A DNA stretch of 64,000 nucleotides, from the NCBI GenBank assembly GCA_963779755.1, contig CAVZZO010000001.1, positions 480,001 through 544,000 on the forward strand. Direction: 5' to 3'. The DNA comes from an uncultured Gemmatimonadales bacterium (GTDB taxonomy: Bacteria; Gemmatimonadota; Gemmatimonadetes; Gemmatimonadales; GWC2-71-9). Under the pieces are notes generated by a model. The model was not told the DNA's origin and ran no database searches. It was given only the letters and a program-made list of their open reading frames with translations. Positions 26,327 through 48,498 of the stretch are shown here, piece after piece; position 1 is the first letter of the stretch; every line of letters starts with the position of its first letter. The position numbers and the translations under genes were made by a program.

Positions 26327-28015
26327 TTGCGGGCAAGGACAGGCTGAAGCCTGCTCTCGGCCGCCGAATCTCTGAGGGGAAGGCTCCTCAGCCGCCACCA
26401 GCGACGCGGTCACGAATCCAGTGCTGCCGCCGAAGACGGCGTGAGCTTATCGGCCGGACACCCCGGCCCACCTGCGGACCGGCGCAATCGTCCCGGCCGC
26501 TTCGAACGGCCCGCAGGCATCGTCGCTCACCTCGGCGCTTCCGAGGGCCAGGGTGGCCGCATCGCGGTACGCCACCTGACAGCCGGTGATCCGGGCGTAG
26601 GAGCCGCTGCTGTCGAAGCCGCTGTCGGTGACCACCAGTTCGGTGTGGATCTCCTGGATGCCCTCGCCCGCGACCAGCTCGCCGCCCGCTTCGGACAGCC
26701 CCAGCCAGAACATCTGAGACGGAAAACTGCCCAGCTGGTGGGGCGTGGGACTGGCCGTGCGGACCTCCCAGAGGGTGCCGCCGGTGGATCGCACATCCTG
26801 GGTGTAGCTCTTGCACAGGGCGCGCGGGTCGGTGGTGCCGGGGATGGTGTCGGTAAAGGGGCAGGGGAGCCAGGGACCGGTGGTGGCGGCGGTGGTCGTC
26901 AGCCGGTTCACCGCCACCACGATCCGGCCGCCGCGGGGGTCGAACGCCGGCCGGGCCGAGGCGACATCGCTCGCGGTGGTGAGGGCCGCGGTACACTCAT
27001 AGGGGGTCACGGTGGGCTGGCCGTTGATCACCGTGTCGCGGCGCTCCTGGCGGAAACAGTCGGAGCCGGAGCCGGGATTGACGGATACCGGCAGGCTCGT
27101 GAGCGAGGTCCAGCCCGGGTGGTAGAGGGAGTAGAGCTGGATGTCGAAGGTGGTGGTGCTCCCGGTGGTGCTGCCCAGCACCCGCACGGCGCTGTCGTTG
27201 TCGTGGGAGACGAAGAGCGAGCTGAGATAGGTGCCGCCCCAGAGCGTATCCGGCAGGGTGAAGGGCGGCCCCTCGTGCCAGGAGCGGGAGCCCGCGTCGT
27301 AGAGGAATTCCCGATCGAAGTTCTGCGCTCCCACCAGGTCTATCCGGCGCCCGCCGTGACGCACGTTCACCAGGCCCGCGGCCTCGCCCAGCTCGGCCAG
27401 GACCTCGACCCCGCTGCCCTGGCGGGCCAGGAGCTGGCCATTGGCGGTCCAGACGTGGGTGCCGCAGAGGGGGGTGCCGGGTCGCTCCCGGGAGAGCAGT
27501 GAGAGGGCGCCGTAGGCATCGAGCTGGTAGATGGAATCGGCGCTGGGGAAGCCCGGGACCAAACGCGCCGTCTCTACTTGGCCGGTGGCGGGGTTGAATT
27601 TCGGTTCCCGGGCGCCGCGGACGATGTAGTCCTCGACCTGGGCAGCAGTGAGCGTTGGATCCATGGACCAGAGCAATGCGGCCACACCGGAGACGAACGG
27701 GGCGGCCAGCGAGGTGCCGTTGTCGGCCAGCACTCCTCCGCCCGGGATGAGAGCGCCCACGGATTGGGCGGGAGCCGCAATGGCCGTAGCGCCGAGGAAC
27801 AAGTTGGAGCCGCTCCACCTCTGGCCCTGGGTATCGGTGCCGGCCACGAAGATGATCTGATCCCGGAAACGGGCGAGTTCCGGCGGGGCGCCGCTCTGGA
27901 AGGGGGCGATCAGGGCCTGGAGCAGGCCGAGGTTATCACCTCGGGCGGAGAGGAGGTCGTCCACAGTGAAATCCGAACTACTGTTATCCACCGACTGAAT
28001 AAACAAGTTGCCGGC

Positions 28016-29389
28016 GGTGCCGTCCCGATTCGTGTAGAAAATTGAAATGGCGTATGCTTCCGGGATGATCGAACCCCGATCCGCCGAAGTGCGGATCTAA
28101 CCCGGAGGCATACGCCATGAGAGAAGTTACGGCCACGGAGCAGGGGTGGGAAGCACTGGTCGGGGCGGACCCGCTGACGGCGGCCCTGCGCGGCGAAGCG
28201 CGGCGCTGGATTGAGCGCATGTTGCACGAGGAATTGGCGGCCGTCTTGGGCAGCGGCCGGCATGAGCGGACCGCCGCCCGGCAGGGATATCGGCACGGCA
28301 CCCGGCGGCGGCGGGTGACGACCAGCCTGGGCCCCGTGGATCTCGCCATCCCGCGAGGGCGGGTGCAGGCGGGCGCCGAGCTGCGGGAATGGCAGAGCGG
28401 GCTGCTGCCGCGGTACGCGCGCCGAGCCCGGGCGGTGGATGCGGCGCTGGTCGGCTTCTACTGCGGGGGCGGCAATCAGCGGCGGCTCGCCCGGGCGCTC
28501 CGCTCGCTGCTGGCCGACGGTCCCGCCTCGCGGAGCACGGTCTCGCGCGTCGTGCGGGGGCTGCGGCAGGGCTACGAGGCGTGGCGCGAGCGCCCCCTGG
28601 GGGAGTTGGGGGTGCAGTATCTCTATCTGGATGCGATCCACCTGCATGTGCGGGTGCTCAAGCGGGTCGAGCCGCTCCCGGTCCAGGTGGCGGTCGGGGT
28701 GCGGCCCGACGGGCAGAAGGTGCTGCTGGATCTCCGGCTCTACGTCGCGGAGAGCGCCGCGGCCTGGGGCGACTTCGTGCGCGGGCTGGTGGAGCGCGGC
28801 CTGGTCGCGCCGGCGCTGGTGATCACCGACGGCAGCAAGGGTCTGCGCCGGGCGCTGAGCGAGATCTGGCCGCAGGCTGCGGTGCAGCGCTGCACGGTGC
28901 ATAAGCTGCGCAACCTGGCGGCCCACTGCCCGCAGCGGCTCTATCCGGCCGTCAAACGCGACTACCACGCCATCGTGTACGCCGCCGATGCGGAGGCGGC
29001 GCGGCGGGCCTGGGGGCGGTTTACCCGCCGCTGGGGCCGGGAGCTCCCGGGGGTGGTGGCGAGCCTGGAGGAGGCGGGCGAGGAGCTGCTCACGTTCTAT
29101 CGCCTGCCGAAGGCGCAGTGGAAGAGCCTGCGCACGACGAATATCGTCGAGCGCGTGCTGGAGGAGGTGCGACGGCGAGTCAAAACGCAGGGATCGCTGC
29201 CCAGCACCGACGCCGTCCTGGTGCTCGGCTACGGTCTGATCGCGACGGGGCAACTGCCCTTGCGGCGGATTGCCGGCTGGCGAACCTTGCCCCGTGTCAG
29301 TAACCGTCAAGCGGCTGCATGAGCGCCTGACACGCTTGGAGGCCCGGAGACAGCGCCCATTGATTTTCTACACAACTCGGGACACGACC
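28016..29389 (+). mobile_element. IS256-family insertion sequence, 1374 bp
   Basis: 27-bp imperfect terminal IRs (GGTGCCGTCCCGATTCGTGTAGAAAAT / GGTCGTGTCCCGAGTTGTGTAGAAAAT); 8-bp TSD TTGCCGGC at 28008-28015 and 29390-29397. Confidence 0.95.
28117..29322 (+). CDS. IS256 (Mutator-type) DDE transposase
   Basis: GGAGG RBS; YRHG..R, YLYLDAI, VITDGSKGL, QRCTVHKLRN, RTTNIVER motifs. Confidence 0.95.
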   Translation: MREVTATEQGWEALVGADPLTAALRGEARRWIERMLHEELAAVLGSGRHERTAARQGYRHGTRRRRVTTSLGPVDLAIPRGRVQAGAELREWQSGLLPRYARRARAVDAALVGFYCGGGNQRRLARALRSLLADGPASRSTVSRVVRGLRQGYEAWRERPLGELGVQYLYLDAIHLHVRVLKRVEPLPVQVAVGVRPDGQKVLLDLRLYVAESAAAWGDFVRGLVERGLVAPALVITDGSKGLRRALSEIWPQAAVQRCTVHKLRNLAAHCPQRLYPAVKRDYHAIVYAADAEAARRAWGRFTRRWGRELPGVVASLEEAGEELLTFYRLPKAQWKSLRTTNIVERVLEEVRRRVKTQGSLPSTDAVLVLGYGLIATGQLPLRRIAGWRTLPRVSNRQAAA

Positions 29390-30973
29390 TTGCCGGCTGC
29401 CAGGTAGTCATAGAGGGCTATCTTCAGCAGCTTCAGTTCGTCTGGGTCTGTGCTTCCGACAGCAGCGGAACTGTGGAGAATTCGTACACCGCTGGTCCAG
29501 GCAAGTGGAAGAAGCCGATCGGCGAAGTAGAATGAAAGGTCCTCCGGGATCTCGTTTCCGCCCCGGCCATAGGAAAAAAGATCGAGGTTCGCCCCCCAAA
29601 TGACACCGGCGATCCCTCCTTTGTTGTTCCCATCGGCAGCCAGAATAGACGCGACTTCGGTTCCATGCCTAAGCCCGACATCGGTGGTGTAGATGCTTGG
29701 GGCAGGAATGAGAGGTATCGCCTCAGGTTCGATTAGCGTGGCCGAGGGAAAGTCCTCCGAAGAACCATCGAAATAAAAATCGATCACGCCCACGTTCGCG
29801 CGATCAGGGGTGTATGTTCCCGTCTCACAACCCCATGCAAGGGGAGCACGTATTGCCAGACGGGAACGGGTTATGCTCGTTGGGGTTATCCAGTCATCAT
29901 GGCCAGCCCCGGGGCCATCTACAGGATAGCGGGTATGAAAGGTGATCCCGCTACGGCGACTCACCGGCGACGCGTAGGTTACGCCGGGTTCTTGATCATT
30001 CAAGCGGCGCTTGAGAGCCTCATAGGCCTCCCAGCTGGATCCTGGATCGGGAACGCGCACGATGTACGCTCTGGCATTCGAGAGACCCCCGATAATTTCC
30101 GCGTGGTAGCCTTGGAATAATTGTCGAATCGTCTTTCCACTGGTGGAGTCATCGAATCGAATGGCGAAAATGTTCCGGTAAAATACGGTCGCAGTGTCCC
30201 ATGGAGGTGAGATCACAATTGTAGTATCACGTGGGAAAGTTCCCGTGGGCGGAATTGCCGGCCGGCTGGTATCCGCATCGGCCGCTTCGGCATAGAGTAC
30301 CAGCTGGAATCGCAGCACCCCGGAATGCACCGCCAGCTCCAGCCAGCGAACCTGTGACGTCGCGCCAGCCGCCAGCTCATCTCTGGGCGGCTGGGCCGCC
30401 AGCAGCGTGTCGTAGCGCCACAGCACCGCGCCCGGCAGGCGCGGATCGGTGGCATCGAGAGCGGAGTCTGGATTCACGAAGTTGAGGTAGTCCGCGGTCC
30501 ACTCATTTTGCGCCAGGCCGGGCGCTTCCAGCACGGTCAGGCTGTCTTCCCAGCCGTAAAGCCGGGCGGGCGCGCGGAAGGGCTGCGAGGTCTGGTTGGC
30601 CAGGGCCAGGGGAAGTCGCACCCGGTCGGCTGGGCCGTCATAGACCGGGGTCCCCACCAGCACGGGCCGCATGCCGCCGCAGGCAGCGCCCGAGGCCGTC
30701 ACGAAGGCGCTGTCGTCGTCTATGGTGATGGTCTCCTTGCCCCGGACCTCGACCTCGAACCGGGCACAGCCCTGCTGGGCCACCGGATACACCGGGCCGA
30801 GCGGTTTCTGGAGGGCCGTCCCTGGTGTCCCACGGCAGGCAAGGAGGGAGCAGAGGAGCAAGAGGATGCACGGCTCGAGGGAGCGGTCGGGCAAACGCCG
30901 CGTTGGCGCCACAGGCATTTCCGGGGAGAGGTGGGCCGGCGACCGATCCAGGGACACCTGCTCTACTGGAGTG

Positions 30974-31001
30974 AGCCTACCGCCGGGAACGCGGCTGTCA
31001 A
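30974..31001 (-). promoter_or_regulatory. Sigma70-like promoter of S8 copy 1
   Basis: TTGACA-N16-TAGGCT, conserved before all five S8 copies. Confidence 0.65.
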
Positions 31002-31102
31002 GATCCGGTGAGAGAAGAGGTGGTAGGGGAGAAGGCGCCGCCAAGATCGAAACCTATGATCCGGTTCCCTCTTCCCAACAGGGAAGGGGGTCAGGGGGTT
31101 AC

Positions 31103-31139
31103 GCCCTCACGGGGTTGTCAGGCCCTCACGGGGTTGTCA
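31103..31139. repeat. Tandem duplication with 19-bp period
   Basis: GCCCTCACGGGGTTGTCA twice, separated by one G. Confidence 0.9.
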
Positions 31140-31205
31140 AGAACGTGCATGGAGCCCAACATGGCTCTGGGCAAATACGATATCCTGTTCCGCAGGAGGC
31201 CAGTG

Positions 31206-32633
31206 ATGCGTAGGTCGGGAGGGTTCGTCCGGCTTGCCGGTGCGGCCGTGTTCTGCTGTGCGGGGTTCTGCGCGCCAGGCCGGCTCGGTGCCCAGGATGC
31301 CGGATCGGGCCAGAGTCTGGTCATCCGCGGCGGGACCCTGATCGACGGCACGGGAGCCGCGCCGGTGGCTGATGCGGTGGTGGTCCTCCGCGGCGGACGG
31401 ATCGCGGCCGTCGGGAAGGCCGGCACCGTTCAGGCGCCCGCGGGCGCCCGCGTGATCGATGCCCGGGGCAAGTGGATCATTCCGGGTCTGGTGGATGCCC
31501 ACGTGCACTACAGCCAGACCGGCTGGTTCGACGGGCGGCCCGACGCGGCAGACGTGCGGGCGCAGTATCCCTATCCTCAGGTCGTCGCCTCCCTGCGGAA
31601 CCATGTGGACCGCTTCTTCCGGGCCGACCTGTGCTCCGGCGTCACCGCCACCTTCGACGTGGGCGGCTATCCCTGGACCCGCGCACTGCAGGCGCGCGGT
31701 GAAGAAGATGCATTCGCCCCGCATGTCGCCGCCGCCGGCGCCCTGCTCTCCACGGTGGACTTCTGGCTCAACCTGCCGGATGAGCGCCAGTTCGTCTTCA
31801 TGGCCTCCGACAGCGCGGTGCGTGCCGAGGTCCGTTCCCATGCCGCGCTCGGCTCAGCCGCCATCAAGGTGTGGTACATCGTGCCCCGCTCCTGGACCAG
31901 CGCGGACAGCGCGCATTACAGCGCGCTGGTGCATCTGGCAGGAACGATGGCGGACAGTGTGGGCCTGCCGCTCATCGTGCATGCGACCGGGCTGTGGGAA
32001 GCGAAGGACGCGATCCGCGCCGGCGCGAAGGTCCTGGTGCACAGCGTCTTTTCCCAGCAGGTGGATGACGAGTTCATCCAGCTGGCCCGCGAGCACCATG
32101 TGATCTACATCCCCACCCTGACGGTAGTGGAAGGTTATCCCAACATGTTCCTGGGTCTTCCGGCGGATTCCCTGCCGTATCCCGCGGGCTGCGTGGACTC
32201 GCTTACCCGGGCCAAGCTGGCGAAAGGACTCCCCGATTCTCTGCGTCCAGTCTGGGCCCGGGGCCCGACGGCACACGCCCCGCCCAATCCCTCACTCCAG
32301 AACGGCCTCGCCAACCTGAAGCGGGTACAGGATGCAGGGATTACCGTGGCCATGGGTACCGATGCGGGGAATCCCGGTACGCTGCACGGGCCGTCGGTCT
32401 ATCGGGAAATGGACCTGATGCAGCAGGCCGGCCTCACCCCGATGCAGGTGCTGGTGGATGCCACCCGGAACGGGGCCGCAGCGATGGGGCGGGGCAGCGA
32501 TTTTGGAACCCTGGAGCTCGGCAAGGCCGGCGACCTCGTGATTCTGGATGCGGATCCGCTTCGGGATATTGCCAACCTCCGGCGGGTGGACCGCGTGATC
32601 AAAGGCGGTGTCGTGGTCTGGCCGCCACACTGA
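31206..32633 (+). CDS. Secreted amidohydrolase-superfamily protein
   Basis: AGGAGG RBS; signal peptide; IRGGTLIDGTG, PGLVDAHVH, GTDAG, GKAGDLVILDADPL. Confidence 0.92.
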   Translation: MRRSGGFVRLAGAAVFCCAGFCAPGRLGAQDAGSGQSLVIRGGTLIDGTGAAPVADAVVVLRGGRIAAVGKAGTVQAPAGARVIDARGKWIIPGLVDAHVHYSQTGWFDGRPDAADVRAQYPYPQVVASLRNHVDRFFRADLCSGVTATFDVGGYPWTRALQARGEEDAFAPHVAAAGALLSTVDFWLNLPDERQFVFMASDSAVRAEVRSHAALGSAAIKVWYIVPRSWTSADSAHYSALVHLAGTMADSVGLPLIVHATGLWEAKDAIRAGAKVLVHSVFSQQVDDEFIQLAREHHVIYIPTLTVVEGYPNMFLGLPADSLPYPAGCVDSLTRAKLAKGLPDSLRPVWARGPTAHAPPNPSLQNGLANLKRVQDAGITVAMGTDAGNPGTLHGPSVYREMDLMQQAGLTPMQVLVDATRNGAAAMGRGSDFGTLELGKAGDLVILDADPLRDIANLRRVDRVIKGGVVVWPPH

Positions 32634-32730
32634 TGGCCGCGAGGGGCAGGCCACCGGGAGCCCGCCACGGGGAAGCGTCCGGCTGGCCCTCCTTGTCGCC
32701 GCGGCGCCACCCCGTCTGATTTCACGGTCG

Positions 32731-36311: not shown

Positions 36312-36369
36312 GGCTCACACGATTCCGGAACCGCCGCGAACCGGGTCGCCCGCTGCAGCCCAGCCGGAA

Positions 36370-39300
36370 TTACCGGAAGGCCGCACCCGCCCAGGTCCTC
36401 CGGGTTGGCGAAATGGTTCCCGCCGATTCGAAGGGGCCGCAGGCATCGTCGCTCACCTCGGCGCTGCCGAGGGCCAGAGTCGCCGCGTCGCGGTAGGCCA
36501 CCTGGCAGCCGGTGATCCGGGCGTAGGAGCCGCTGCTGTCGAAGCCGCCGGCGGTAACCACCAGCTCGGTGTGGATCTCCTGGAGGCCCTCGCCGGCGAC
36601 CAGCTCCCCGCCCGCCTCCGACAGCCCCAGCCAGAACATCTGCGACGGGAAACTGCCGAGCTGGTGGGGCGTGGGACTGGCCGTGCGGACCTCCCAGAGG
36701 GTGCCGCCGGTGGAGCGCATGTCCTGGGTGTAGCTCTTGCACAGGGCGCGCGGGTCGGTGGTGCCGGGGATGGTGTCGGTAAAGGGGCAGGGGAGCCAGG
36801 GGCCGGTGGTGGCGGCCGTGGTCGTCATCCGGTTCACCGCGACCACCACCCGACCGCCCCGGGGGTCGAAGGCCGGCCGGGCCGAGGCGACATCGCTCGC
36901 GGTGGTGAGGGCTGCGGTACACTCATAGGGGGTCACGGTGGACTGGCCGTTGATCACCGTGTCGCGGCGCTCCTGGCGGAAACAGTCGGAGCCCGAGCCG
37001 GGATTGACGGACACGGGCAGGCTGGTGAGGGAGGTCCAGCCCGGGTGGTAGAGGGAGTAGAGCTGGATATCGAAGCTGGTGGTGCTCCCGGCGGTGCTGC
37101 CCAGCACCCGCGGTGCTGCCCAGCACCCGCACGGCGCTGTCGTTGTCGTGCGAAACGAAGAGCGAGCTGAGATAGGTGCCGCCCCAGAGCGTATCGGGCA
37201 GGGTGAAGGGCGGCCCTTCCTGCCAGGATCGGGAGCCCGCGTCGTAGAGGAACTCCCGATCGAAGTTCTGCGCGCCCACCAGGTCTATCCGGCGGCCGCC
37301 ATGCCGCACGTTCACCAGGCCCGCGGCCTCGCCCAGATCGGCCAGCACTTCCACTCCGGTGCCGCGCCGGGCCAGGAGCTGGCCATGGGCGGTCCAGACG
37401 TGGGTGCCGCAGAGCGGGGTCCCGGGCCGCTCCCGGGAGAGCAGCGAGAGGGCGCCATAGGCGTCGAGCTGGTAGATGGATTCACTGCTGGGGAAGCCCG
37501 GCACCGGCTGGGCCGGCTCCACCTCTCCGGTGGTGGGGTTGAATTTCGGTTCCCGGGCGCCGCGGACGATGTAGTCCTTCACCTGGGCAGCGGTGAGTGT
37601 TGGATCCATGGCCCAGAGCAATGCGGCCACACCGGAGACGAACGGAGCGGCCAGGGAGGTGCCGTTGTCGGCTAGCACCCCTCCACCCGGAATGAGGCTC
37701 CCACGGCCTCGGCGGGAGCAGCTATGGCGGTGGCGCCCAGGAACAGGTTGGAATTGGCCCATTTCTGTCCCTGCATATTCGTGCCGGCCACGAACATGAT
37801 CTGATCCCGGAAGCGGGCGATCTCCGGCGGGGCGCCACTCTGGAAGGGAGTGATCAGAGCCTGCAGAAGGCCGAGGTTATCACCTCGTGCGGCGAGGATC
37901 TCGTCTATAGTGAAATCGCGTCCATTATTGTCCACGGATTGCACGATCAGGTTCCCCGCGGCGAGGTAGTCGTATAGGGCCTTCTTCATACGCTCCAACT
38001 CCTCGGGATCCGTACTCCCGACTGCCGCAGAGCTCTGGAGTACCCGTATGCCTCTGGCTGCTGCCGTGGGGAAGAGCTCGAGCACGAGATATCCCGTCAG
38101 ATCTTCTGGGATACTATCCCCAAGACCGTAAGCAAGCAGTTGGAGATTTGCTCCCCAAATCATTCCCGCTATCCCTTCCCCGTTGTTCCCATCGGCAGCC
38201 AATATCGAAGCCACCTGGGTTCCGTGCCGGAGACCTACCTCCGTCCTGTAGTAGCTGGGTGCGAACATGAGAGGTATCGAGCTGGGTCCAGACAGCGTGG
38301 CCGAGGAAAGGTCCTTCGACGGGTCGAAATGGAAATCAATTACGCCGATTCCAACCCGCCCACTAGTGTACGTGCCGGTTTCACAACCCCAGGCAAGCGG
38401 CGCACGGATTGCCAAGCGTGGGCGAGTCACATCCGTGGGTGTTACCCAGTCGCTACGTTGTGCGCCAATTCCGTCCACCGGGTGTTGGCTGTGGAACGTG
38501 ATTCCGCTGCGACGATGTACTGGGGCAGCGTAGTCGACACCGGATTCATCGTCATTCAAACGCCGCTTCAGCGCCTCATACGCTTCCCAACTGGCACCGG
38601 GATCCGGAACACGGACGAAGTATTCCTGCTGCGCTGGCCCCCCGCTGATAATCTCGGCACCATATCGCTGAAAGAGACTGCGGATTGTTCTTCCACTGGT
38701 GGTATCGTCGAACCGGATGACGAAAATATTCCGGTAGAAGACGTTCATTGTGTCCCCCGGCGGAGCAATGACAATCGTCGTATCCCGGGGGAAGATCCCG
38801 AGCGGTGGCACCGCCGGCCGGCTGGTATCCGCATCCGAGGCTTCGGCGTAGAGCACCAGCTGGAATCGCAGCACCCCCGAATGCACCGCCAACTCCACCC
38901 AGCGGATCTGCGACGTGTCCCCGGCCGCCAGCTCGTCCTGGGGCGGCTGGACCGCGAGCAGGGTGTCGTAGCGCCACAATACCGCACCCGGGAGGTGCGG
39001 AGCATCGGCCGCGAGCGCGGAGTCCGGATTCAGGAAGTTGAGGTAATCCGCGGTCCACTGGTTCTGGGCCAGGCCGGGCGCTTCCAGCACGGTCAAGCTG
39101 TCTTCCCAGCCATAAAGCCGGGCGGGCGCACGGAAGGGCTGCGCGGTCTGGTTGGCCAGGGCCAGGGGGAGGCGCACCCGGTCGGCCGGGCCGTCATACA
39201 CCGGGGCGCCGGCCAGGACCGGCCGCACGCCGCCGCAGGCGCCGCCCGAGGCGGTCACGAAGGCGCTGTCGTCGTCCACGGTGATGGTCTCCCTGCCCCG

Positions 39301-39471
39301 GACCTCCACCTGGAAGCGGGCACAGCCTTGCTGCGCGACGGGATAGATTGGGCCGAGCGGTTTCTGGAGGGCAGGGGCTAACGGGGTCCCCCGGCAGGCG
39401 AGCAGGGAGCCAAGCAGCAGGAGCACGCGGGCCTCACGAGGGGGGACAGGCACCCAGCGCGTTGGTGGCAC
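36370..39471 (-). pseudogene. S8 subtilase lipoprotein, copy 2, two frameshifts
   Basis: One base missing at 37696-37697 relative to copy 4; 19-bp tandem duplication at 37091-37128; all triad motifs present across three ORFs. Confidence 0.88.
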
Positions 39472-39531
39472 AGGACGTATCCGGAAGAGAAGTGGCCAGC
39501 GGTGATCACGGGGGACGGCCCTACCGGGGAT

Positions 39532-39559
39532 AGCCTACCGCTGGGAACGCGGTTGTCAA
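39532..39559 (-). promoter_or_regulatory. Sigma70-like promoter of S8 copy 2
   Basis: TTGACA-N16-TAGGCT. Confidence 0.65.
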
Positions 39560-39564
39560 GATCG

Positions 39565-39669
39565 GGTGAGCGGTCAGCGGTGAGCGGTGAGCGGTCAGCG
39601 GTGAGCGGTGAGCGGTCAGCGGTGAGCGGTGAGCGGTCAGCGGTGAGCGGTGAGCGGTCAGGGGTGAGC
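39565..39669. repeat. 7-bp VNTR (GGTSAGC)x15
   Basis: GGTGAGC/GGTCAGC units with a 21-bp higher-order period. Confidence 0.95.
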
Positions 39670-39824
39670 GCGGGTCTCCTCTCGACCTATCGAGTGGCTG
39701 GGTCTCCGTCTTGAGGCTTGAAGCCCTCCAAGCGCCGCCGGCGCATCGATGGACAGGCTGAAGCCTGCCCTCGGCCTAACGATCCCTGAAGGGATGCCGG
39801 CAGGCGGGCGACGTCGCAGGCGCG
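39670..39824. repeat. Hairpin-rich S8 intergenic element, copy A (truncated)
   Basis: Near-identical to 41672-41826 and 45126-45280. Confidence 0.9.
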
Positions 39825-41487
39825 TCCCGGAAGCGGGCGATCTCCGCCGGGGCGCCGCTCTGGAAGGGAGTGATCAGAGTCTGCAGAAGCCCGAGGTTAT
39901 CACCTCGTGCGGCGAGGATCTCGTCTATAGTGAAATTGCGACCATTATTGTCCACGGATTGGACAAAGAGGTTGCCGGCAGCAAGGTACTGGTACAGCGC
40001 GTCCTTTATGCGCTGTAATTCGTACGGATACGTGCTCCCGATCGCGGCAGAACTGTGAAGTACGCGAACGCCTGCTGCCTGGGCACCTGGGAAGAGGTTG
40101 TTGGCCAGATAAGCGGTAATGTTGAGCGGAACGTCGCCACCTAGGCCATAGGCCAAGAGTTGGAGATCCGCCTTCCAGATCATCCCCGAAATGCCCTCGT
40201 GATTGTTTCCGTCTGCTGCCACGATCGAAGCCACCTGGGTTCCGTGTCGAAGGCCAACGGCAGTCGTAAAGTATGAAGGGGCTGGTGTCAAAGGTACGGA
40301 AGTGGGCTCCAGTAGGGTGGCAGAGGAGAAGTCTTTGGAGAGGTCGAAGTGGAAGTCGATTACTCCTACTTTGACTCGATTCGGGGTGTTGGTGCCCGTT
40401 TCGCAGCCCCAGGCGAGCGGGGCACGGATGGCCAAACGAGAGCGAGTGAAGTCGGTGGCTGTTGCCCAGTCTTGACGTTGTGCGCCAGGTCCGTCAAGCG
40501 GATATCGAGTGTGGAACGTGATTCCACTCCGATAGCTCATTGGGGCCGCATATCGTATCCCAGGTTCCATCTCATTGAGTTGCCGCATCAATCCGTCATA
40601 TGCTTCCCAACTGGAGCCCGGATCCGGGATCCGCACGATGTATTCTCTCGCATTTGACAGACCGCCGATAATCTCCGCTTGATAACGCTGAAAAAGACTG
40701 CGGATAGTGCTCCCGCTCGTAGAATCATCGAAGCGGATCCCAATGATGTTCCGGAAGAAGACATTCATCGTGTCACCAGGAGGTGCTGTGACTATCGTTG
40801 AGTCATATGGAAAGAACGCGCTGGGCGGAATCGCCGGCCTAGTGGTATCCGCATCCGAGGCTTCGGCGTAGAGCACCAGCTGGAACTTCAGCACCCCCGA
40901 GTGCACGGCCACCTCCACCCAGCGTACCTGTGACGTTGCGCCGCCAGCCAGCTCGTCTTTCGGCGGCTGTGCCGCCAGTAGCGTGTCATAGCGCCACAGC
41001 ACCGCGCCCGGCAGGCGCGGATCGGCGGCATCGAGCGCCGAGTCCGGATGCAGGAAGTTCAGGTAATCCGCGGTCCACTGGTTCTGGGCCAGGCCGGGCG
41101 CTTCCAGCACGGTCAGGCTGTCCTCCCAGCCGTAGAGCCGGGCGCACGGAAGGGCTGCGCGGTCTGATTGGCCAGGGCCAGGGGGAGGCGCACCCGGTCG
41201 GCCGGGCCATCATACACCGGGGAGCCAGCCAAGACCGGCCGCACGCCGCCGCAGGCAGCGCCCGATGCCGTCACGAAGGCGTTGTCGTCGTCTATGGTGA
41301 TGGTCTCCTTGCCCCGGACCTCGACCTCGAACCGGGCACAGCCCTGCTGGGCCACCGGATACACCGGGCCCAGGGGCTTCTGGGAGACCGGAGCCAGCGG
41401 AGTCCCCCGGCAGGCGAGGAGGGAGCAGAGGAGCAGAAGCATGGAGGTCTCACGAGAGGGGACGGGCAGCCGGCGCGTGGGCGGCAC
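39776..41487 (-). pseudogene. S8 subtilase lipoprotein, copy 3, frameshifted and lacking its C-terminal half
   Basis: 4-bp loss near 41140; homology ends at RFRD (39825), where it joins the intergenic element; catalytic Ser motif absent. Confidence 0.9.
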
Positions 41488-41547
41488 AGGACGTCTCCGG
41501 AAGAGAGGTCGCCGGTTGCAGATCAGGAGGACTGCCCTACCGGGGAT

Positions 41548-41575
41548 AGCCTACCGCTGGGAACGCGGTTGTCAA
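41548..41575 (-). promoter_or_regulatory. Sigma70-like promoter of S8 copy 3
   Basis: TTGACA-N16-TAGGCT. Confidence 0.65.
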
Positions 41576-41580
41576 GATCG

Positions 41581-41671
41581 GGTGAGCGGTCAGCGGTGAG
41601 CGGTGAGCGGTGAGCGGTCAGCGGTGAGCGGTGAGCGGTCAGCGGTGAGCGGTGAGCGGTCAGGGGTGAGC
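41581..41671. repeat. 7-bp VNTR (GGTSAGC)x13
   Basis: Read directly. Confidence 0.95.
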
Positions 41672-41875
41672 GCGGGTCTCCTCTCGACCTATCGAGTGGC
41701 TGGGTCTCCGTCTCGAGGCTTGAAGCCCTCCAAGCGCCGCCGGCGGATCGGTGGACAGGCTGAAGCCTGCCCTCGGCCCGACGATCCCTGAAGGGATGCC
41801 GGCAGGCGGGCGACGTCGCAGGCGCGCCCACGGGTCGCCGCCGGAGTATGACCCCTGGAGCGGGAGGCGCGGGGG
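41672..41875. repeat. Hairpin-rich S8 intergenic element, copy B
   Basis: Stem-loops CTCGA-CCTA-TCGAG, CAGGC-TGAA-GCCTG, ATCCC-TGAA-GGGAT. Confidence 0.9.
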
Positions 41876-44800
41876 TTATCGCCCGGATACCCCGGCCCAC
41901 CTCCGGGTTGGCGAAATGGTTCCCGCCGATTCGAAGGGGCCGCAGGCATCGTCGCTCGCCTCGGCGCTGCCGAGGGCCAGGGTCACCGCGTCGCGGTAGG
42001 CCACCTGGCAGCCGGTGGTCCGGGCGTAGGAGCCGCTGCTGTCGAAGCCGCCGGCGGTAACCACCAGCTCGGTGTGAAGCTCCTGGATGCCCTCGCCTGC
42101 GACCAGCTCCCCGCCCGCTTCCGCCAGCCCCAGCCAGAACATCTGCGCCGGGAAACTGCCGAGCTGGTGGGGCGTGGGACTGGCCGTGCGGACCTCCCAG
42201 AGGGTGCCGCCGGTGGAGCGCATGTCCTGCGCGTAGCTCTTGCACAGGGCGCGCGGGTCGGTGGTGCCGGGGATGGTGTCGGTAAAGGGGCAGGGGAGCC
42301 AGGGACCGGTGGTGGCGGCGGTGGTGGTGAGCCGGTTGACCGCCACGACGATCCGGCCGCCCCGGGGGTCGAATGCCGTCCGGGCCGAGGCCACTTCGCT
42401 CGAGGTGGTGAGCGCCGCGGTACACTCGTAGGGGGTCACGGTGGGCTGGCCGTTGATTACGGTGTCGCGGCGCTCCTGGCGGAAACAGTCGGAGCCCGAG
42501 CCGGGATTGACGGACACGGGCAGGCTGGTGAGTGAGGTCCAGCCCGGGTGGTAGAGGGAGTAGAGCTGGATATCGAAGGTGGTGGTACTCCCGGTGGTGC
42601 TGCCCAGCACCCGCACCGCGCTGTCGTTGTCGTGGGAGACAATGAGCGAGCTGAGATAGGTGCCGCCCCAGAGCGTATCCGGCAGGGTGAAGGGCGGCCC
42701 CTCGTGCCAGGAACGGGAGCCCGCGTCGTAGAGGAACTCCCGATCGAAGTTCTGCGCGCCCACCAGGTCTATCCGGCGGCCGCCATGCCGCACGTTCACC
42801 AGGCCCGCGGCCTCGCCCAGATCGGCCAGCACTTCCACTCCGGTGCCGCGCCGGGCCAGGAGCTGGCCATGGGCGGTCCAGACGTGGGTGCCGCAGAGGG
42901 GGGTGCCGGGTCGCTCCCGGGAGAGCAGCGAGAGGGCGCCATAGGCGTCGAGCTGGTAGATGGATTCACTGCTGGGGAAGCCCGGCACCGGCTGGGCCGG
43001 CTCCACCTCTCCGGTGGTGGGGTTGAATTTCGGTTCCCGGGCGCCGCGGACGATGTAGTCCTTCACCTGGGCAGCGGTGAGTGTTGGATCCATGGCCCAG
43101 AGCAATGCGGCCACACCGGAGACGAACGGAGCGGCCAGGGAGGTGCCGTTGTCGGCTAGCACCCCTCCACCCGGAATGAGGGCTCCCACGGCCTCGGCGG
43201 GAGCAGCTATGGCGGTGGCGCCCAGGAACAGGTTGGAATTGGCCCATTTCTGTCCCTGCATATTCGTGCCGGCCACGAACATGATCTGATCCCGGAAGCG
43301 GGCGATCTCCGGCGGGGCGCCGCTCTGGAAGGGGGCGATCAGAGCCTGCAAAAGGCCGAGGTTATCACCTCGTGCGGCGAGGATGTCGTCGACAGTGAAA
43401 TCGCGTCCATTATTGTCCACGGATTGGACGATAAGGTTGCCAGCTGCCAGATAGTCATACAGGGCATGCTTCAATCGATCGACTTGATATGGGACGGTGC
43501 TTCCGACGGCCGCAGAGCTGTGTAGGATCTGGACTCCCTCGGCTTGCGCAGTTGGGAGAAGAGTCGCAGTGAGGTAATCGGTAATATCTTCCGGTACACT
43601 GTCACCATGGCCATAAGCAAAGAGATGGAGATCCGATCCCCAGATCATCCCGGCAATCCCTTTCATGTTGTTCCCGTCGGCCGCCAAAATGGACGCAACC
43701 TCCGTCCCATGCCGCAACCCAACGTCGGTAGTGTAATAACTGGGTGCTGGGACCAGAGGAAACCGCGCCGGTTCAGAGAGCGTAGCTGATGACAAGTCGA
43801 ATGAGGGATCGAAATGGAAGTCAATCACCCCCGCTCTAATACGTTCGTTGGTATACATGCCAGTTTCACAGCCCCATGCTAACGGTGCGCGGATCGCCAT
43901 TCGCGAACGCGTCACGTCTGTAGGCAATAACCAGTCACCACGCCCTGCACCGGTTCCATCTACCGGATAGCGGGTGTGAAATGTAATTCCGCTTCGGCGA
44001 CTCATCGGGGATGCATAGTCAAGACCGGGTTCCTCGTCATTGAGGCGGTGCAATAGCGCCTCGTATGCTTCCCAAGTTGGTCCAGGATCGGGAACGCGAA
44101 CGACATATTCTTCATTCGCTGGCCGGCCGCCGATGATCTCTGCATCGTATCGCTGAAAAAGGTCTCGGACTGTCACGCCGCCTGTAGAATCATCAAAGCG
44201 GATCACGAAGATGTTTCGATAGAAGACATTGACGGTGTCCCCCGGCGGAGCAATGACAATCGTCGTATCCCGGGGGAAGATGTCGAGCGGCGGCACCGCC
44301 GGGCGGCTGGTATCCGCATCTGAGGCTTCGGCATAGAGCACCAGCTGGAATCGCAGCACCCCCGAATGCACCGCCACCTCCACCCAGCGGATCTGCGAAG
44401 TATCCCCGGCCGCCAACTCGTCCTGGGGCGGCTGGGCCGCGAGCAGCGTGTCATAGCGCCACAGCACCGCGCCCGGCAGGCGCGGATCGGCGGCATCGAG
44501 CGCCGAGTCCGGATGCAGGAAGTTCAGGTAGTCCGCGGTCCACTGGTTCTGGGCTAGGCCGGGCGCTTCCAGCACCGTCAGGCTGTCCTCCCAGCCGTAG
44601 AGCCGGGCGGGCGCACGGAAGGGCTGCGAGGTCTGATTGGCCAGGGCCAGGGGGAGGCGCACCCGGTCGGCCGGACCGTCATACACCGGCGCCCCGGCCA
44701 GGACGGGCCGCACGCCGCCACACGCGGCGCCCGAGGCGGTCACGAAGGCGCTGTCGTCGTCCACGGTGATGGTCTCCCTGCCCCGGACCTCCACCTGGAA

Positions 44801-45001
44801 GCGGGCACAGCCTTGCTGCGCCACCGGATAGACCGGGCCGAGCGGTTTCTGGAGGGCCGGGGCTAGCGGGGTCCCCCGGCAGGCGAGCAGGGAGCAGAGG
44901 AGCAGGAGCATGCGGGCCTCACGTGAGGGGACAGGCACCCAGCCCGTTGGTGGCACAGGAGATCTCGGGAAGAGGAGTGGCCGGTAGTGGATCATGGACA
45001 C
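41876..45001 (-). CDS. S8 subtilase lipoprotein, copy 4 (intact)
   Basis: LLLCSLLAC lipobox; GVIDF, HGTEVASILAA, GTSLAAPFVSG triad; Cys-containing C-terminal region; exact start uncertain. Confidence 0.92.
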   Translation of the reverse strand: MSMIHYRPLLFPRSPVPPTGWVPVPSREARMLLLLCSLLACRGTPLAPALQKPLGPVYPVAQQGCARFQVEVRGRETITVDDDSAFVTASGAACGGVRPVLAGAPVYDGPADRVRLPLALANQTSQPFRAPARLYGWEDSLTVLEAPGLAQNQWTADYLNFLHPDSALDAADPRLPGAVLWRYDTLLAAQPPQDELAAGDTSQIRWVEVAVHSGVLRFQLVLYAEASDADTSRPAVPPLDIFPRDTTIVIAPPGDTVNVFYRNIFVIRFDDSTGGVTVRDLFQRYDAEIIGGRPANEEYVVRVPDPGPTWEAYEALLHRLNDEEPGLDYASPMSRRSGITFHTRYPVDGTGAGRGDWLLPTDVTRSRMAIRAPLAWGCETGMYTNERIRAGVIDFHFDPSFDLSSATLSEPARFPLVPAPSYYTTDVGLRHGTEVASILAADGNNMKGIAGMIWGSDLHLFAYGHGDSVPEDITDYLTATLLPTAQAEGVQILHSSAAVGSTVPYQVDRLKHALYDYLAAGNLIVQSVDNNGRDFTVDDILAARGDNLGLLQALIAPFQSGAPPEIARFRDQIMFVAGTNMQGQKWANSNLFLGATAIAAPAEAVGALIPGGGVLADNGTSLAAPFVSGVAALLWAMDPTLTAAQVKDYIVRGAREPKFNPTTGEVEPAQPVPGFPSSESIYQLDAYGALSLLSRERPGTPLCGTHVWTAHGQLLARRGTGVEVLADLGEAAGLVNVRHGGRRIDLVGAQNFDREFLYDAGSRSWHEGPPFTLPDTLWGGTYLSSLIVSHDNDSAVRVLGSTTGSTTTFDIQLYSLYHPGWTSLTSLPVSVNPGSGSDCFRQERRDTVINGQPTVTPYECTAALTTSSEVASARTAFDPRGGRIVVAVNRLTTTAATTGPWLPCPFTDTIPGTTDPRALCKSYAQDMRSTGGTLWEVRTASPTPHQLGSFPAQMFWLGLAEAGGELVAGEGIQELHTELVVTAGGFDSSGSYARTTGCQVAYRDAVTLALGSAEASDDACGPFESAGTISPTRRWAGVSGR

Positions 45002-45016
45002 GGCCCTGCTGCGGAT

Positions 45017-45044
45017 AGCCTACCGCTGGGACCGCGGCTGTCAA
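45017..45044 (-). promoter_or_regulatory. Sigma70-like promoter of S8 copy 4
   Basis: TTGACA-N16-TAGGCT. Confidence 0.65.
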
Positions 45045-45049
45045 GATCG

Positions 45050-45125
45050 GGTGGCGGTCAGCGGTGAGCGGTCAGCGGTGAGCGGTGAGCGGTCAGCGGT
45101 GAGCGGTGAGCGGTCAGGGGTGAGC
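45050..45125. repeat. 7-bp VNTR, 10 units plus one degenerate unit
   Basis: Read directly. Confidence 0.95.
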
Positions 45126-45329
45126 GCGGGTCTCCTCTCGACCTGTCGAGTGGCTGGGTCTCCGTCTCGAGGCTTGAAGCCCTCCAAGCGCCGCCGGCGG
45201 ATCGGTGGACAGGCTGAAGCCTGCCCTCGGCCCGACGATCCCTGAAGGGATGCCGGCAGGCGGGCGACGTCGCAGGCGCGCCCACGGGTCGCCGCCGGAG
45301 TATGACCCCTGGAGCGGGAGGCGCGGGGG
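45126..45329. repeat. Hairpin-rich S8 intergenic element, copy C
   Basis: Near-identical to copy B. Confidence 0.9.
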
Positions 45330-48300
45330 TTATCGCCCGGATATCCCGGCCCACCTCCGGGTTGGCGAATAGGAGCCGCTGCTGTCGAAGCCGCCGGCGG
45401 TAACCACCAGCTCGGTGTGGATCTCCTGGAGGCCCTCGCCGGCGACCAGCTCCCCGCCCGCCTCCGCCAGCCCCAGCCAGAACATCTGCGCCGGGAAACT
45501 GCCGAGCTGGTGGGGCGTGGGACTGGCCGTGCGGACCTCCCAGAGCGTGCCGCCGGTGGAGCGGACATCCTGCGTGTAGCTCTTGCAGAGGGCGCGCGGG
45601 TCGGTGGTGCCGGGGATGGTGTCGGTAAAGGGGCAGGGGAGCCAGGGGCCGGTGGTGGCGGCCGTGGTCGTCATCCGGTTCACCGCGACCACTACCCGAC
45701 CGCCCCGGGGGTCGAAGGCCGGCCGGGCCGAGGCGACATCGCTCGCGGTGGTGAGGGCCGCGGTACACTCATAGGGGGTCACGGTGGGCTGGCCGTTGAT
45801 CACCGTGTCGCGGCGCTCCTGGCGGAAACAGTCGGAGCCGGAGCCGGGATTGACGGATACCGGCAGGCTCGTGAGCGAGGTCCAGCCCGGGTGGTAGAGG
45901 GAGTAGAGCTGGATGTCGAAGGTGGTGGTGCTGCTGCCGAGCACCCGGACGGCGCTGTCGTTGTCGTGGGAGACAAAGAGCGAGCTGAGATAGGTGCCGC
46001 CCCAGAGGGTGTCGGGGAGGGTGAAGGGCGTTCCTTCCTGCCAGGATCGGGAGCCCGCGTCGTAGAGGAATTCCCGATCGAAGTTCTGCGCTCCCACCAG
46101 GTCTATCCGGCGCCCGCCGTGACGCACGTTCACCAGGCCCGCGGCCTCGCCCAGCTCGGCCAGGACCTCGACCCCGCTGCCCTGGCGGGCCAGGAGCTGG
46201 CCATTGGCGGTCCAGACGTGGGTGCCGCAGAGGGGGGTGCCGGGCCGCTCCCGGGAGAGCAGCGAGAGGGCGCCGTAGGCGTCGAGCTGGTAGACTCCGG
46301 GCGGTCCAGCTCCCAGCTGCTGCGGAGTAACCATGGTTCCTGTTTGCGGGTCGAATCTTGGGACCTGCGCGCCACGGAGGAGGAGGTCCTTGACCTGGAC
46401 CGCTGTAAGGGTCGGGTCGAACGTCAAGAGTTGGGCGATGGCCCCTGCCACGAACGGTGCGGAGTAGGAGGTACCGGTTCGAACGGAGGTCCCGCCGGGG
46501 AAATCATTGATTCGCGCCAGCGTTTCGATATCCACGGCTGGCGCGGCGATCTGGGTGGCTCCCTCCCAGACGTTGGAAGAGGCATAGTAGTTAGACCCAT
46601 CAGCGCCCGCGACGAAGATGATCTGTCCGGGGTAGCGGGAATAGAGCCGGGCAGCCGCCGCATCCAGGGCCGTCGCACGCGCGTCCTGTGTTGTCTGAAG
46701 TGCTGAGACGGAAATTACGGCACTATAATTCCCCGTGGCCATTACGAATGTGTTGCTGGGACTTGCAGACAGGTACCCTTCCAGTGCCTCAGCCAGCCGT
46801 GAGACGTGGGTCGTATCTTTGATAAACCCGGCCCCCACTGAGGTTAGCAGTACGGGAATACCAGCTCTTGCAGCACTGTCGAAGACTACAGTAAGGCGGC
46901 TAACAGGATCGTTCACCACGACCGTATCGTGGCCGTAGGCAAACAGATGCAGGTCACCGCCCCAGACCATGCCAGCAATGCCCTCCCCGTTGTCGCCGGT
47001 TGCAGCCAGAATGCCCGCGACAGCAGTACCGTGTGAACGGTATATGGCCCCGGCGGTCGCGTTGCCGTCGGGGGTCGGATCGGTCAGGAAGGCGCTGGGG
47101 ATTGTCGGTGCTGTGGGGAGTACTAAATGGATCTGCGATCCTTGAAAGTCTGGATGTGCGTTATCAAAGGTGAAATCAATGACACCAAGGCGTGCCTCTG
47201 TATTGGTGTAAGCGCCAGTCTCACAGCCCCAGGCCAAAGGGGCACGGACGGACATCCAAGGTCGGAGAGAAGGTGATCCCAAAACCCAATCCGCTCTCCT
47301 GTGCGATACCCCATCGATTGGAAGCCGGTACCGTGGGTCGAGCTTTCCTCGATAAGTGACTCCTGACACCCAGCGAACGGCGGGTTCCCTCACGATCATA
47401 TTGCGCAACGATTCCAAGTCTTCCCATCTGGTGCCGGGGTCAGGCACCTGAATCAGGTACGTACCATACCTGCCCTCCTGGGGTATGCCCCCAATGATCG
47501 TTGCGTGGTACCGTTGTAGAACCGTGCGAATGGCTGGTCCGGTTGCTGAATCCTCAAAGGCGACAATTAAGATGTTCCGGAAGTACAGGACACTTGCGTC
47601 ATCAGGATGGGGAACAACCAACGTGCTATCGAACGGATACGGGCCCACCGGGGGTACCGCAGGCCGGCTAGTATCCGCGTCCGCCGCCTCGGCATAGAGT
47701 ACCAGCTGGAACTTCAGCACCCCTGAGTGCACCGCCAGCTCCACCCAACGCACCTGCGAACTCGCGCCCGCCGCAAGCTCGTCCTTGGGCGGCTGGGCCG
47801 AGAGCAGCGTGTCGTAGCGCCACAGGACCGCGCCGGGAAGCTGCGGGTCAGTGGCATCGAGCGCGGAGTCCGGGGACAGGAAATCGAGGTAGTCCGCGGT
47901 CCATTCATTCTGGGCCAGGCCCGGCGCTTCCAGCACCGTCAGGCTGTCCTCCCAGCCGTAGAGCCGGGCCGGGGCGCGGAAGGGCTGTGCGGTCTGGTTG
48001 GCCAGAGCCATTGGAATGCGTACCCGGTCGGCCGGGCCGTCATAGACCGGGGTTCCCGCCAGCACCGGCCGCACTCCGCCACAGGCGGCGCCCGAGGCGG
48101 TCACGAAGGCGCTGTCGTCCTCCACCGCGATAGTTTCCTTGCCCCGGACCTCCACCTGGAAGCGGGCGCAGCCCTGCTGGGCCACCGGATAGACCGGGCC
48201 GAGCGGTTTCTGGAGGGCCGTCCCTGGTTTCCCACGGCAGGCAAGGAGGGAGCAGAGGAGCAAGAGGATGCACGGCTCGAGGGAGCGGTCGGGCAAACGC

Positions 48301-48359
48301 CGCGTTGGCGCCACAGGCATTTCCGGGGAGAGGTGGGCCGGCGACCGATCCAGGGACAC
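45330..48359 (-). CDS. S8 subtilase lipoprotein, copy 5 (most divergent core; 37-aa in-frame C-terminal deletion)
   Basis: Lipobox LLAC; GVIDF, HGTAVAGILAA, GTSYSAPFVAG; 111 bp missing at 45369/45370 relative to copy 4. Confidence 0.9.
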   Translation of the reverse strand: MSLDRSPAHLSPEMPVAPTRRLPDRSLEPCILLLLCSLLACRGKPGTALQKPLGPVYPVAQQGCARFQVEVRGKETIAVEDDSAFVTASGAACGGVRPVLAGTPVYDGPADRVRIPMALANQTAQPFRAPARLYGWEDSLTVLEAPGLAQNEWTADYLDFLSPDSALDATDPQLPGAVLWRYDTLLSAQPPKDELAAGASSQVRWVELAVHSGVLKFQLVLYAEAADADTSRPAVPPVGPYPFDSTLVVPHPDDASVLYFRNILIVAFEDSATGPAIRTVLQRYHATIIGGIPQEGRYGTYLIQVPDPGTRWEDLESLRNMIVREPAVRWVSGVTYRGKLDPRYRLPIDGVSHRRADWVLGSPSLRPWMSVRAPLAWGCETGAYTNTEARLGVIDFTFDNAHPDFQGSQIHLVLPTAPTIPSAFLTDPTPDGNATAGAIYRSHGTAVAGILAATGDNGEGIAGMVWGGDLHLFAYGHDTVVVNDPVSRLTVVFDSAARAGIPVLLTSVGAGFIKDTTHVSRLAEALEGYLSASPSNTFVMATGNYSAVISVSALQTTQDARATALDAAAARLYSRYPGQIIFVAGADGSNYYASSNVWEGATQIAAPAVDIETLARINDFPGGTSVRTGTSYSAPFVAGAIAQLLTFDPTLTAVQVKDLLLRGAQVPRFDPQTGTMVTPQQLGAGPPGVYQLDAYGALSLLSRERPGTPLCGTHVWTANGQLLARQGSGVEVLAELGEAAGLVNVRHGGRRIDLVGAQNFDREFLYDAGSRSWQEGTPFTLPDTLWGGTYLSSLFVSHDNDSAVRVLGSSTTTFDIQLYSLYHPGWTSLTSLPVSVNPGSGSDCFRQERRDTVINGQPTVTPYECTAALTTASDVASARPAFDPRGGRVVVAVNRMTTTAATTGPWLPCPFTDTIPGTTDPRALCKSYTQDVRSTGGTLWEVRTASPTPHQLGSFPAQMFWLGLAEAGGELVAGEGLQEIHTELVVTAGGFDSSGSYSPTRRWAGISGR

Positions 48360-48375
48360 CTGCTCTACTGGTGTG

Positions 48376-48403
48376 AGCCTACCGCCGGGAACGCGGCTGT
48401 CAA
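48376..48403 (-). promoter_or_regulatory. Sigma70-like promoter of S8 copy 5
   Basis: TTGACA-N16-TAGGCT. Confidence 0.65.
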
Positions 48404-48498
48404 GATCGGGTGAGTGGGGGGGCTGCTCTGGCCTCCGGCCTCCAGGCTTCCTATCCTGTTAACGTTCTCCGGTTCGATTCCCTGACCCTGAGCCCCCC

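Follow-up and report, generated by a model that had tools for sequence, protein, structure and literature searches.

Divergent subtilase modules between similar flanks in a five-copy array of a Gemmatimonadales genome, with a probable role of gene conversion in keeping the outer domains alike

How can neighbouring genes resemble each other at both ends and yet differ throughout the middle? The question is raised by an array of five S8 (subtilase) genes of lipoprotein type in the genome of an uncultured soil Gemmatimonadales bacterium (4.23 Mb in four contigs, 68.6% GC, 97% complete). The window analysed here is the 64,000-nt stretch C1:480001-544000 of this genome, and positions given without a contig refer to it. 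An initial annotation, made from the letters of the window, had described five such genes with constant flanks and a different catalytic core in each copy. The array is real: five copies, termed c1 to c5, are found on the minus strand between 26447 and 48359, and c4, used as a query against the entire genome of 4.23 Mb, revealed no copy outside this cluster. The homologues carry names such as Gemmatimonadales or Gemmatimonadota S8 peptidase, in agreement with the placement of the genome in the Gemmatimonadales. As argued below, the array probably consists of old paralogous protease modules, each comprising a propeptide and a catalytic domain, which are set in flanks held alike by gene conversion.

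Pairwise identity, measured in sliding 150-nt windows, and GC content at third codon positions (GC3) both change in a step-like manner along the genes instead of being uniform. The N flanks are 79-98% and the C flanks 86-100% identical and are similar and mosaic, instead of nearly identical as first described. Within the core the identity amounts to 57-76% among c1-c4 and to 39-59% between c5 and the others, and over the same columns the GC content drops from 66-79% to 49-63%. The core is hence different in every copy, richer in AT and highly varied at silent sites, as had been noticed at the outset: the proportion of synonymous differences (pS) in the core is saturated at 0.69-0.85, and the synonymous divergence (dS) of the flanks is 0.27-0.72 for the N and 0.14-0.26 for the C flank. 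On the amino-acid level the cores of c1-c4 are 67-73% identical to each other and 41-44% identical to that of c5, with a proportion of nonsynonymous differences (pN) of 0.17-0.41 alongside the saturated pS. The ratio of nonsynonymous to synonymous divergence (dN/dS) is 0.09-0.24 where dS can be estimated and comparisons with the diverged mid part of c5 are excluded, with 0.10-0.24 for the cores as far as it can be calculated, and neither codon-level pN/pS nor dN/dS gives a signal of positive selection in the core. The 5′ switch coincides with the motif ADTSRPA in all five copies, near the place (ADT.RPA) proposed in the initial annotation, whose core limits are close to the computed ones. The 3′ switch is located at about residue 520 of c4 in c1-c4 and about 160 codons later, at about residue 680, in c5.

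The change in composition is seen at third codon positions, with GC3 values of 56-62% in the core, 75-79% in the mid part, 83-87% in the N flank and 90-91% in the C flank at constant GC2 (second codon positions). Within the array GC3 therefore rises with homogenisation, in the order core, mid part, N flank and C flank. Neighbouring genes have a GC3 of 80-88%, and in the two S8 genes that the genome has outside the array the S8 domains reach 87%. Fourfold-degenerate sites of the core use A, C, G and T at 21, 32, 28 and 20%, as compared to 4, 45, 46 and 5% in the genome, and the rarest codons of the genome are enriched roughly 5-20 fold in the core (TTA rises from 0.2 to 4.2 per 1000). Genome-wide, 250-codon windows with a GC3 below 65% account for 1.3% of 12375. 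When the nine long open reading frames (ORFs) of lowest GC3 were checked, six turned out to be artefacts of stop-to-stop reading, and the only other genuine in-frame low-GC3 segments are the C-terminal tips of two genes, namely a 1394-aa protein with a C-terminal Colicin E5 ribonuclease domain (L077, C3:1506886-1511067) and a nearby RHS-repeat protein (L078, C3:1540333-1545042). A further locus, L070 (C3:695849-698554), matches RNA polymerase Rpb1 domains 1-3 up to about residue 580 and then runs out of frame, which could reflect a frameshifted rpoC or a mistake in its assembly.

In spite of their divergence the cores retain the features of a protease. As the initial annotation had stated, none of the five copies has lost the Asp (GVIDF), His (HGT) or APLAWGCETG motif, and the GTS motif is present in all four copies that extend to that point. 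GVIDF, HGT and GTS, which we take to mark the Asp, His and Ser of the catalytic triad, align in this order in c1, c2, c4 and c5, and in c3 the Asp and His motifs are present and the Ser part is lost. The Pfam family Peptidase_S8 scores 64.5 bits for c4, 68.1 bits for c5 and 37.9 bits for the C part of c1 (cut-off 21.8). A structure model of c4, predicted from a 24-sequence alignment with a predicted local distance difference test score (pLDDT) of 77, comprises a disordered leader (1-62), a β-sandwich (63-226), a propeptide-like β-α-β-β-α-β unit (259-336) followed by a disordered linker (340-358), a catalytic domain (365-696) and a β-rich C domain (706-1030). Foldseek assigns the model to the subtilisin fold with a probability of 1.00 and template modelling (TM) scores on the target of 0.71-0.78. 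The top structural matches are unautoprocessed pro-subtilisins, whose 442-509 aligned columns exceed the mature enzyme, together with EpiP, SUB1 and fervidolysin. The expectation that a propeptide precedes the catalytic domain is supported by the predicted, propeptide-like unit 259-336 and by the pro-subtilisins as best matches; the propeptide profile PF22148 scores below its cut-off of 21 bits for c5 (19.6) and for the N part of c1 (19.5) and does not match c4.

The outer domains are less readily assigned. No Pfam family matches the N or the C domain when taken alone, and a separate model of the C domain (pLDDT 70) resembles β-propellers only (TolB, Kelch, tricorn), at TM scores of 0.2-0.43. 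Look-alikes in an atlas, which serve as leads only, are unnamed clusters with scores of 0.90-0.91 for the N domain and matches up to 0.81, Kelch-type propellers included, for the C domain. At the N-terminus of each of the five copies, Arg-containing residues are followed by the sequence LLLLCSLLAC, whose LLAC presumably represents a lipobox. Taken together, the predicted domain order is a lipobox signal, a β-sandwich N domain, a propeptide-like unit, the S8 catalytic domain and a β-propeller-like C domain. Mapped onto the c4 model, the core of c1-c4 spans the propeptide, the catalytic Asp and His and two long helices (473-487 and 504-519). Subtilisin propeptides pack on two such helices. The original proposal that the variable segment consists of the propeptide and the N-terminal half of the catalytic domain accordingly fits c1-c4, where it covers the Asp/His half, and falls short in c5, where the entire catalytic domain is included.

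That the flanks are homogenised by gene conversion or recombination, as had been suggested, is supported by the distribution of identities and by trees. Identity reaches 99-100% between c1 and c5 in some windows and between c2 and c5 close to the 3′ end, and c2 matches c4 at 100% over c4 43323-42895. In a run-length test of matching runs at polymorphic sites with 2000 permutations, the runs observed in the N flank for c1-c3, c1-c5 and c3-c4 were matched in none of the permutations, and the same holds for c1-c5 in the C flank, where the run of c2-c4 was matched twice. No excess was found for c1-c2, c2-c5 and c3-c5 in the N flank or for c1-c2 in the C flank (326-1721 of 2000 permutations). Separate trees were calculated for the parts of the gene from 92 family rows (the five window copies, ORFs of fetched loci and database proteins), of which 90, 80, 73 and 85 were left for core, N, C and mid part, respectively, after dropping sparse ones. 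The five copies form one clade in the N-flank tree (support 92), as do the four available copies in the C-flank tree (support 100). In the core tree c1-c4 are united (support 99) and c5 is found elsewhere, in a (starred) clade of 13 rows with cores of other genomes. Flank and core trees are therefore incongruent.

The cores represent old lineages on which purifying selection acts. Between genomes, invariant columns of the family are located mostly in the core (P234 to W454), so that the segment which is variable within the array is the best-conserved part of the family and not a rapidly diversifying region. Selection for surplus silent divergence between the paralogues was considered and rejected, as codon identity at conserved residues lies at, and not below, the shuffle expectation (six of ten pairs at expectation, c3-c4 borderline above). 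A diversity-generating retroelement, or some other mutator acting locally, could hypermutate the core in a targeted manner; this would lead to silent saturation and to a drift towards AT, and both the saturated silent sites with their near-uniform fourfold base use and an approximately 2.5-fold faster change per site of the module than of the N domain in one close trio would fit. Nevertheless, this explanation is very improbable: unlike genomes with diversity-generating retroelements, which combine a reverse transcriptase with a template/variable pair of repeats, the 97%-complete genome contains no match to the reverse transcriptase family PF00078; the divergent region measures 0.9-1.4 kb, and known retroelement targets are far shorter; the amino acids are under purifying selection; and the cores form deep, well-supported lineages common to other genomes.

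Further Gemmatimonadota genomes show this layout of alike flanks around a differing module. A motif scan with one genome per species yielded 42 loci, all from Gemmatimonadota except for one Acidimicrobiia record, and among 40 relatives queried with c4 a clear family member was found in G039 alone (38% identity). Locus L044 carries three tandem copies with flanks of 93-100% identity and cores in which copy b is 65-75% identical to a and c, copies a and c being 99-100% identical throughout the core. Locus L045 carries two tandem copies with N flanks of 97-100% and a remainder of 43-61% identity. The switch in both loci is located at or near the junction of N domain and propeptide, the residue differing. 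In dispersed paralogue pairs of other metagenome-assembled genomes the N domain is 74-91% identical on the nucleotide level as compared to 41-78% for the core, in five of five testable pairs (two further ones could not be scored). Some of the tandem paralogues in L044 6137-14961 (LLEAE) and L045 10701-13922 (LFEWK in L045b) have a Glu at the position of the catalytic Asp or lack it, with His and Ser kept, and may be altered or inactive enzymes. The family genes of L048, L055 and L064, labelled Gemmatimonadetes bacterium and Longimicrobiaceae bacterium, are nearly identical (core branch lengths 0.035-0.18), which could indicate one lineage under differing labels or a recent transfer.

The GC3 trough is likewise found across the family. 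Outside the window, the N-domain GC3 exceeds that of the core by at least 10 points in 22 of 35 family ORFs scored, and the background does so in 24 of 27 ORFs with other ORFs at the locus; the medians of those family ORFs are 84 for background, 83 for N, 67 for core and 77 for C. For 26 ORFs whose loci have a GC content of 65% or more, anchored at PLAWGC, the median GC3 is 83-93 up to codon -151, 63-75 from -150 to +299 and 77-83 thereafter. The trough is absent in L010, L037 and L059, weak in L029 and strong in L040 and L038, whose genomes gave one module match each; the genome of L036 gave four. A difference between N and core of at least 10 points was counted by hand in 13 of 15 ORFs from multi-locus genomes versus 13 of 24 from single-locus genomes. 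Strong troughs are also seen in G041 and G042, where searches of the whole genome gave one copy each, and copy number therefore fails as an explanation. In the module, AT-to-GC changes polarised by parsimony in three trios number 50 versus 70, 93 versus 125 and 86 versus 131, and the lack of an AT-to-GC excess argues against recently imported, ameliorating DNA.

These findings lead back to the question how the outer and middle parts of the genes came to differ in history. The five genes would be paralogues of a lipoprotein-type subtilase family restricted to Gemmatimonadota. Their outer domains were likely held alike within the genome by repeated gene conversion, and the middle part, comprising propeptide and catalytic domain, likely escaped conversion and thereby preserved old separate lineages. 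Conversion tracts that split a propeptide from its own catalytic domain would be selected against, and the module would be inherited as a unit because a propeptide helps its cognate enzyme to fold and inhibits it. Substrate preference probably differs between the modules. The designations as specificity modules and as a polymorphic system, proposed in the initial annotation, stay putative.

Several observations weigh against this reading. Forcing c1-c5 together in a tree of core plus mid part is 69.7 log-likelihood units worse for 42 chosen rows and is rejected by the approximately unbiased (AU) test, in support of old separate cores, but p is no lower than 0.017 and the tested group was chosen post hoc from the tree. 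The C domain diverges as strongly as the core in L045 and in the pair L028/L041, so that a homogenised C flank is not a general feature. The conversion model leaves the trough unexplained, which is present in G041 and G042, where whole-genome search gave one copy each; the trough is a property of the family that is independent of the array. The designation as lipoprotein depends on a motif judged by eye and stays putative. Finally, flank conversion and core replacement by recombination predict the same pattern, and the data cannot separate them.

Candidates for the origin of the trough are the lack of a recombination-linked GC drive in an overly divergent module, codon-level selection on a secreted protease, a locally raised mutation rate and repeated module replacement. 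On the first of these a reading can be built in which the module is excluded from homogenising recombination, either because it is too divergent or because selection keeps it apart, and its silent sites are near mutational equilibrium: its fourfold sites use the four bases roughly equally, and other fourfold sites of the genomes are about 91% G+C. This reading is regarded as doubtful.

An alternative close to the initial proposal is cassette exchange, in which modules would be swapped into otherwise constant genes from other alleles, strains or genomes and selection would maintain a polymorphic surface protease system. The family-wide composition step exactly at the module edges (in the 26 ORFs above), the grouping of the c5 core with cores of other genomes and the renewed occurrence of a constant N domain with a differing module elsewhere would be in line with it, as would the fact that the other in-frame low-GC3 segments of this genome belong to the tips of a Colicin-E5-type polymorphic toxin and an RHS protein. 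On the other hand, no repeat beyond the shuffle level joins the two core edges in the four copies tested, the signal of positive selection is absent, and no close external donor is found, the best outside protein being 47% identical over half of the query. Neither does the polarisation in the three trios give an excess of AT-to-GC changes in the module, and the N domains differ so strongly between genomes that homology arms for an exchange between genomes are lacking. Cassette exchange is accordingly considered unlikely, and old modules in flanks homogenised by conversion are preferred.

The array is partly decaying, as three of its five copies are broken. Only c4 and c5 are intact, and c1, c2 and c3 are interrupted by an insertion sequence (IS), frameshifts and deletions. 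In c1 an IS256-family element with 27-nt imperfect inverted repeats at its ends is placed at the 3′ edge of the core and flanked by an 8-bp target duplication, TTGCCGGC, at 28008-28015 and 29390-29397. Removal of the IS and one duplicate restores an open frame of 1071 codons. Six full copies of the 1374-bp element are present genome-wide at 98.5-100% identity, and it is therefore probably active; two of them are located a few kb or less from the genes for the Colicin-E5-type toxin and the RHS protein. In c2 the frame is shifted twice, by a 1-nt deletion in a run of C (about 37697) and by a tandem duplication of 19 nt, perfect in sequence, at 37091-37130. Copy c3 has lost 4 nt at about 41145, corresponding to one CGCC repeat unit, and about 1.4 kb from residue ~573 through the stop codon together with about 60 nt of spacer, which accounts for the missing C-terminus noted earlier. 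Each broken copy bears one or two recent lesions, and the three copies were inactivated recently.

In a repeat-rich region, similar flanks or broken copies could in principle be artefacts arising from collapse or errors of the assembly. The 1-nt deletion of c2, situated in a C run, might be a read error, and the 99-100% identity of L044 copies a and c through the core could reflect assembly. Collapse is unlikely, however, as it would give identity and the mosaic flanks carry many copy-specific changes. Furthermore, the pattern is seen again in independent assemblies, the 8-bp IS target duplication is clean, and the 19-nt duplication and the deletion of a 4-nt repeat unit are ordinary types of mutation. 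An artefact is very improbable. Contigs of one low-depth public soil run contained 34% of sampled words, and its matching pieces of 201-635 nt bridge no flank-core pair of interest; no RNA data set was among the holders.

Table 1. Positions of the array copies, their divergent parts, the inserted element and the upstream repeats (window positions unless a contig is given).
Feature	Position	Strand	Basis or remark
Copy 5 (c5), intact S8 lipoprotein-type gene, 1009 aa	45330..48359	-	ORF; Peptidase_S8 1e-18; lipobox-like LLAC
c5 divergent module, propeptide and whole catalytic domain, low GC3	46300..47680	-	Identity, codon and core-limit analyses
Copy 4 (c4), intact, 1041 aa	41876..45001	-	ORF; Peptidase_S8 1.3e-17; structure model
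c4 core, propeptide and Asp/His half of catalytic domain, GC3 56%	43428..44320	-	
Copy 3 (c3), pseudogene	39776..41532	-	Two deletions
c3 core	39963..40855	-	
Copy 2 (c2), pseudogene	36370..39471	-	1-nt deletion and 19-nt tandem duplication
c2 core	37943..38835	-	
Copy 1 (c1), whole extent including insertion	26447..31044	-	
c1 5′ part, N domain and core (core 29398-30280)	29398..31044	-	
c1 3′ part, Asn/Ser half of catalytic domain and C domain	26447..28015	-	
IS256-family insertion sequence, 1374 bp	28016..29389	+	Transposase 28117-29322; Transposase_mut 3.2e-80
Other IS copies	C1:950348-951721, C3:824110-825483, C3:1502492-1503865, C3:1546785-1548158, C3:1625786-1627159		
Heptamer tandem repeat (GGTGAGC)n, 11 units	45050-45126		Spacer upstream of c4
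Heptamer array, 13 units	41581-41672		Upstream of c3
Heptamer array, 15 units	39565-39670		Upstream of c2

Upstream of c2, c3 and c4 the GGTGAGC arrays, which include GGTCAGC variants, immediately precede a conserved TTGACA-containing sequence, and a single heptamer unit is found at the corresponding place of c5. The heptamer occurs at about 20 other places of the genome in arrays of 3-15 units. A promoter and terminator scan of 41700-48500 gave counts at shuffle level, and the TTGACA-containing sequence that is conserved ahead of c4 and c5 does not pass it. Between c1 and c2 the plus strand encodes an amidohydrolase, a Ser/Thr kinase and an α-L-fucosidase. Genes for Ser/Thr protein kinases lie beside or within the array at three places (23547-26288, 32608-34965 and 48499-51273), two of them with PD40 β-propeller repeats and one with TPR repeats; those at 32608 and 48499 have a 224-nt stretch in common that is 71% identical. 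A linkage of kinase and protease was discarded, with a kinase match in only 2 of 28 related loci of at least 9 kb.

No description of such a gene arrangement or of a domain-limited GC3 trough was found in the literature searched, in keeping with the initial annotation, which knew of none for the arrangement. A unit of propeptide and enzyme set apart from its carrier domains suggests a way in which more than one type of protease is maintained on a common surface scaffold by soil bacteria. The step in GC3, from 83-90% in the genes to about 57-70% within them, persists over deep divergence, and its explanation would bear on how base composition is set in bacteria of high GC content or on the control of a secreted protease at the level of codons. 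If the module were indeed excluded from recombination, the genes would provide a natural experiment within single genes, in which a recombination-linked GC drive and not mutation sets GC3, and would mark a polymorphic surface protease system with an internal variable part.

Among known systems, silent-cassette antigenic variation (pilE/pilS, msp2, vlsE) employs one expression site and promoterless partial cassettes, unlike the array, where a start, a signal peptide and conserved sequence upstream belong to every single copy. With pro-subtilisins (PDB codes 3whi and 2z2z, and fervidolysin, 1r6v) the array has in common a propeptide-like β-α-β unit ahead of an S8 domain with Asp, His and Ser; it differs by the additional N-terminal β-sandwich, the lipobox signal and the C-terminal propeller-like domain, and shares 12-21% of its residues with solved structures. 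Polymorphic toxin and Rhs systems, in the parts of their description drawn on here (Zhang et al. 2012, PMC3482391), likewise combine a constant part with a variable module of lower GC content and have broken or partial copies nearby. Unlike there, the variable part of the array is internal and a conserved enzyme fold with intact triad, not a C-terminal toxin, and the subtilase family is restricted to Gemmatimonadota apart from the Acidimicrobiia record. The 329-nt spacer between c5 and c4 contains no immunity-like gene, just short ORFs overlapping repeats or genes.

As far as the model of GC-biased gene conversion is set out in the sections used of Lassalle et al. (2015, PMC4450053), evident recombination goes along with a higher GC3, and the climb of GC3 with homogenisation in the array agrees with this. 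The trough also accompanies unhomogenised C domains of high GC3 and occurs in two genomes in which one copy was found, unlike what that model describes, and paralogue conversion alone is therefore insufficient to explain it. A close precedent is concerted evolution by gene conversion among bacterial paralogues, which has been surveyed (PMC6053082). Its cases, in the portion of the survey consulted, share with the array paralogues that are closer within a genome than homologues between genomes, mosaic tracts and copies in tandem or nearby. Partial concerted evolution is thus already known; in contrast to those cases, the array homogenises the non-catalytic domains only, with a functional module in the middle of the gene kept apart in a domain-exact manner, and the pattern recurs at the level of a little-studied phylum.

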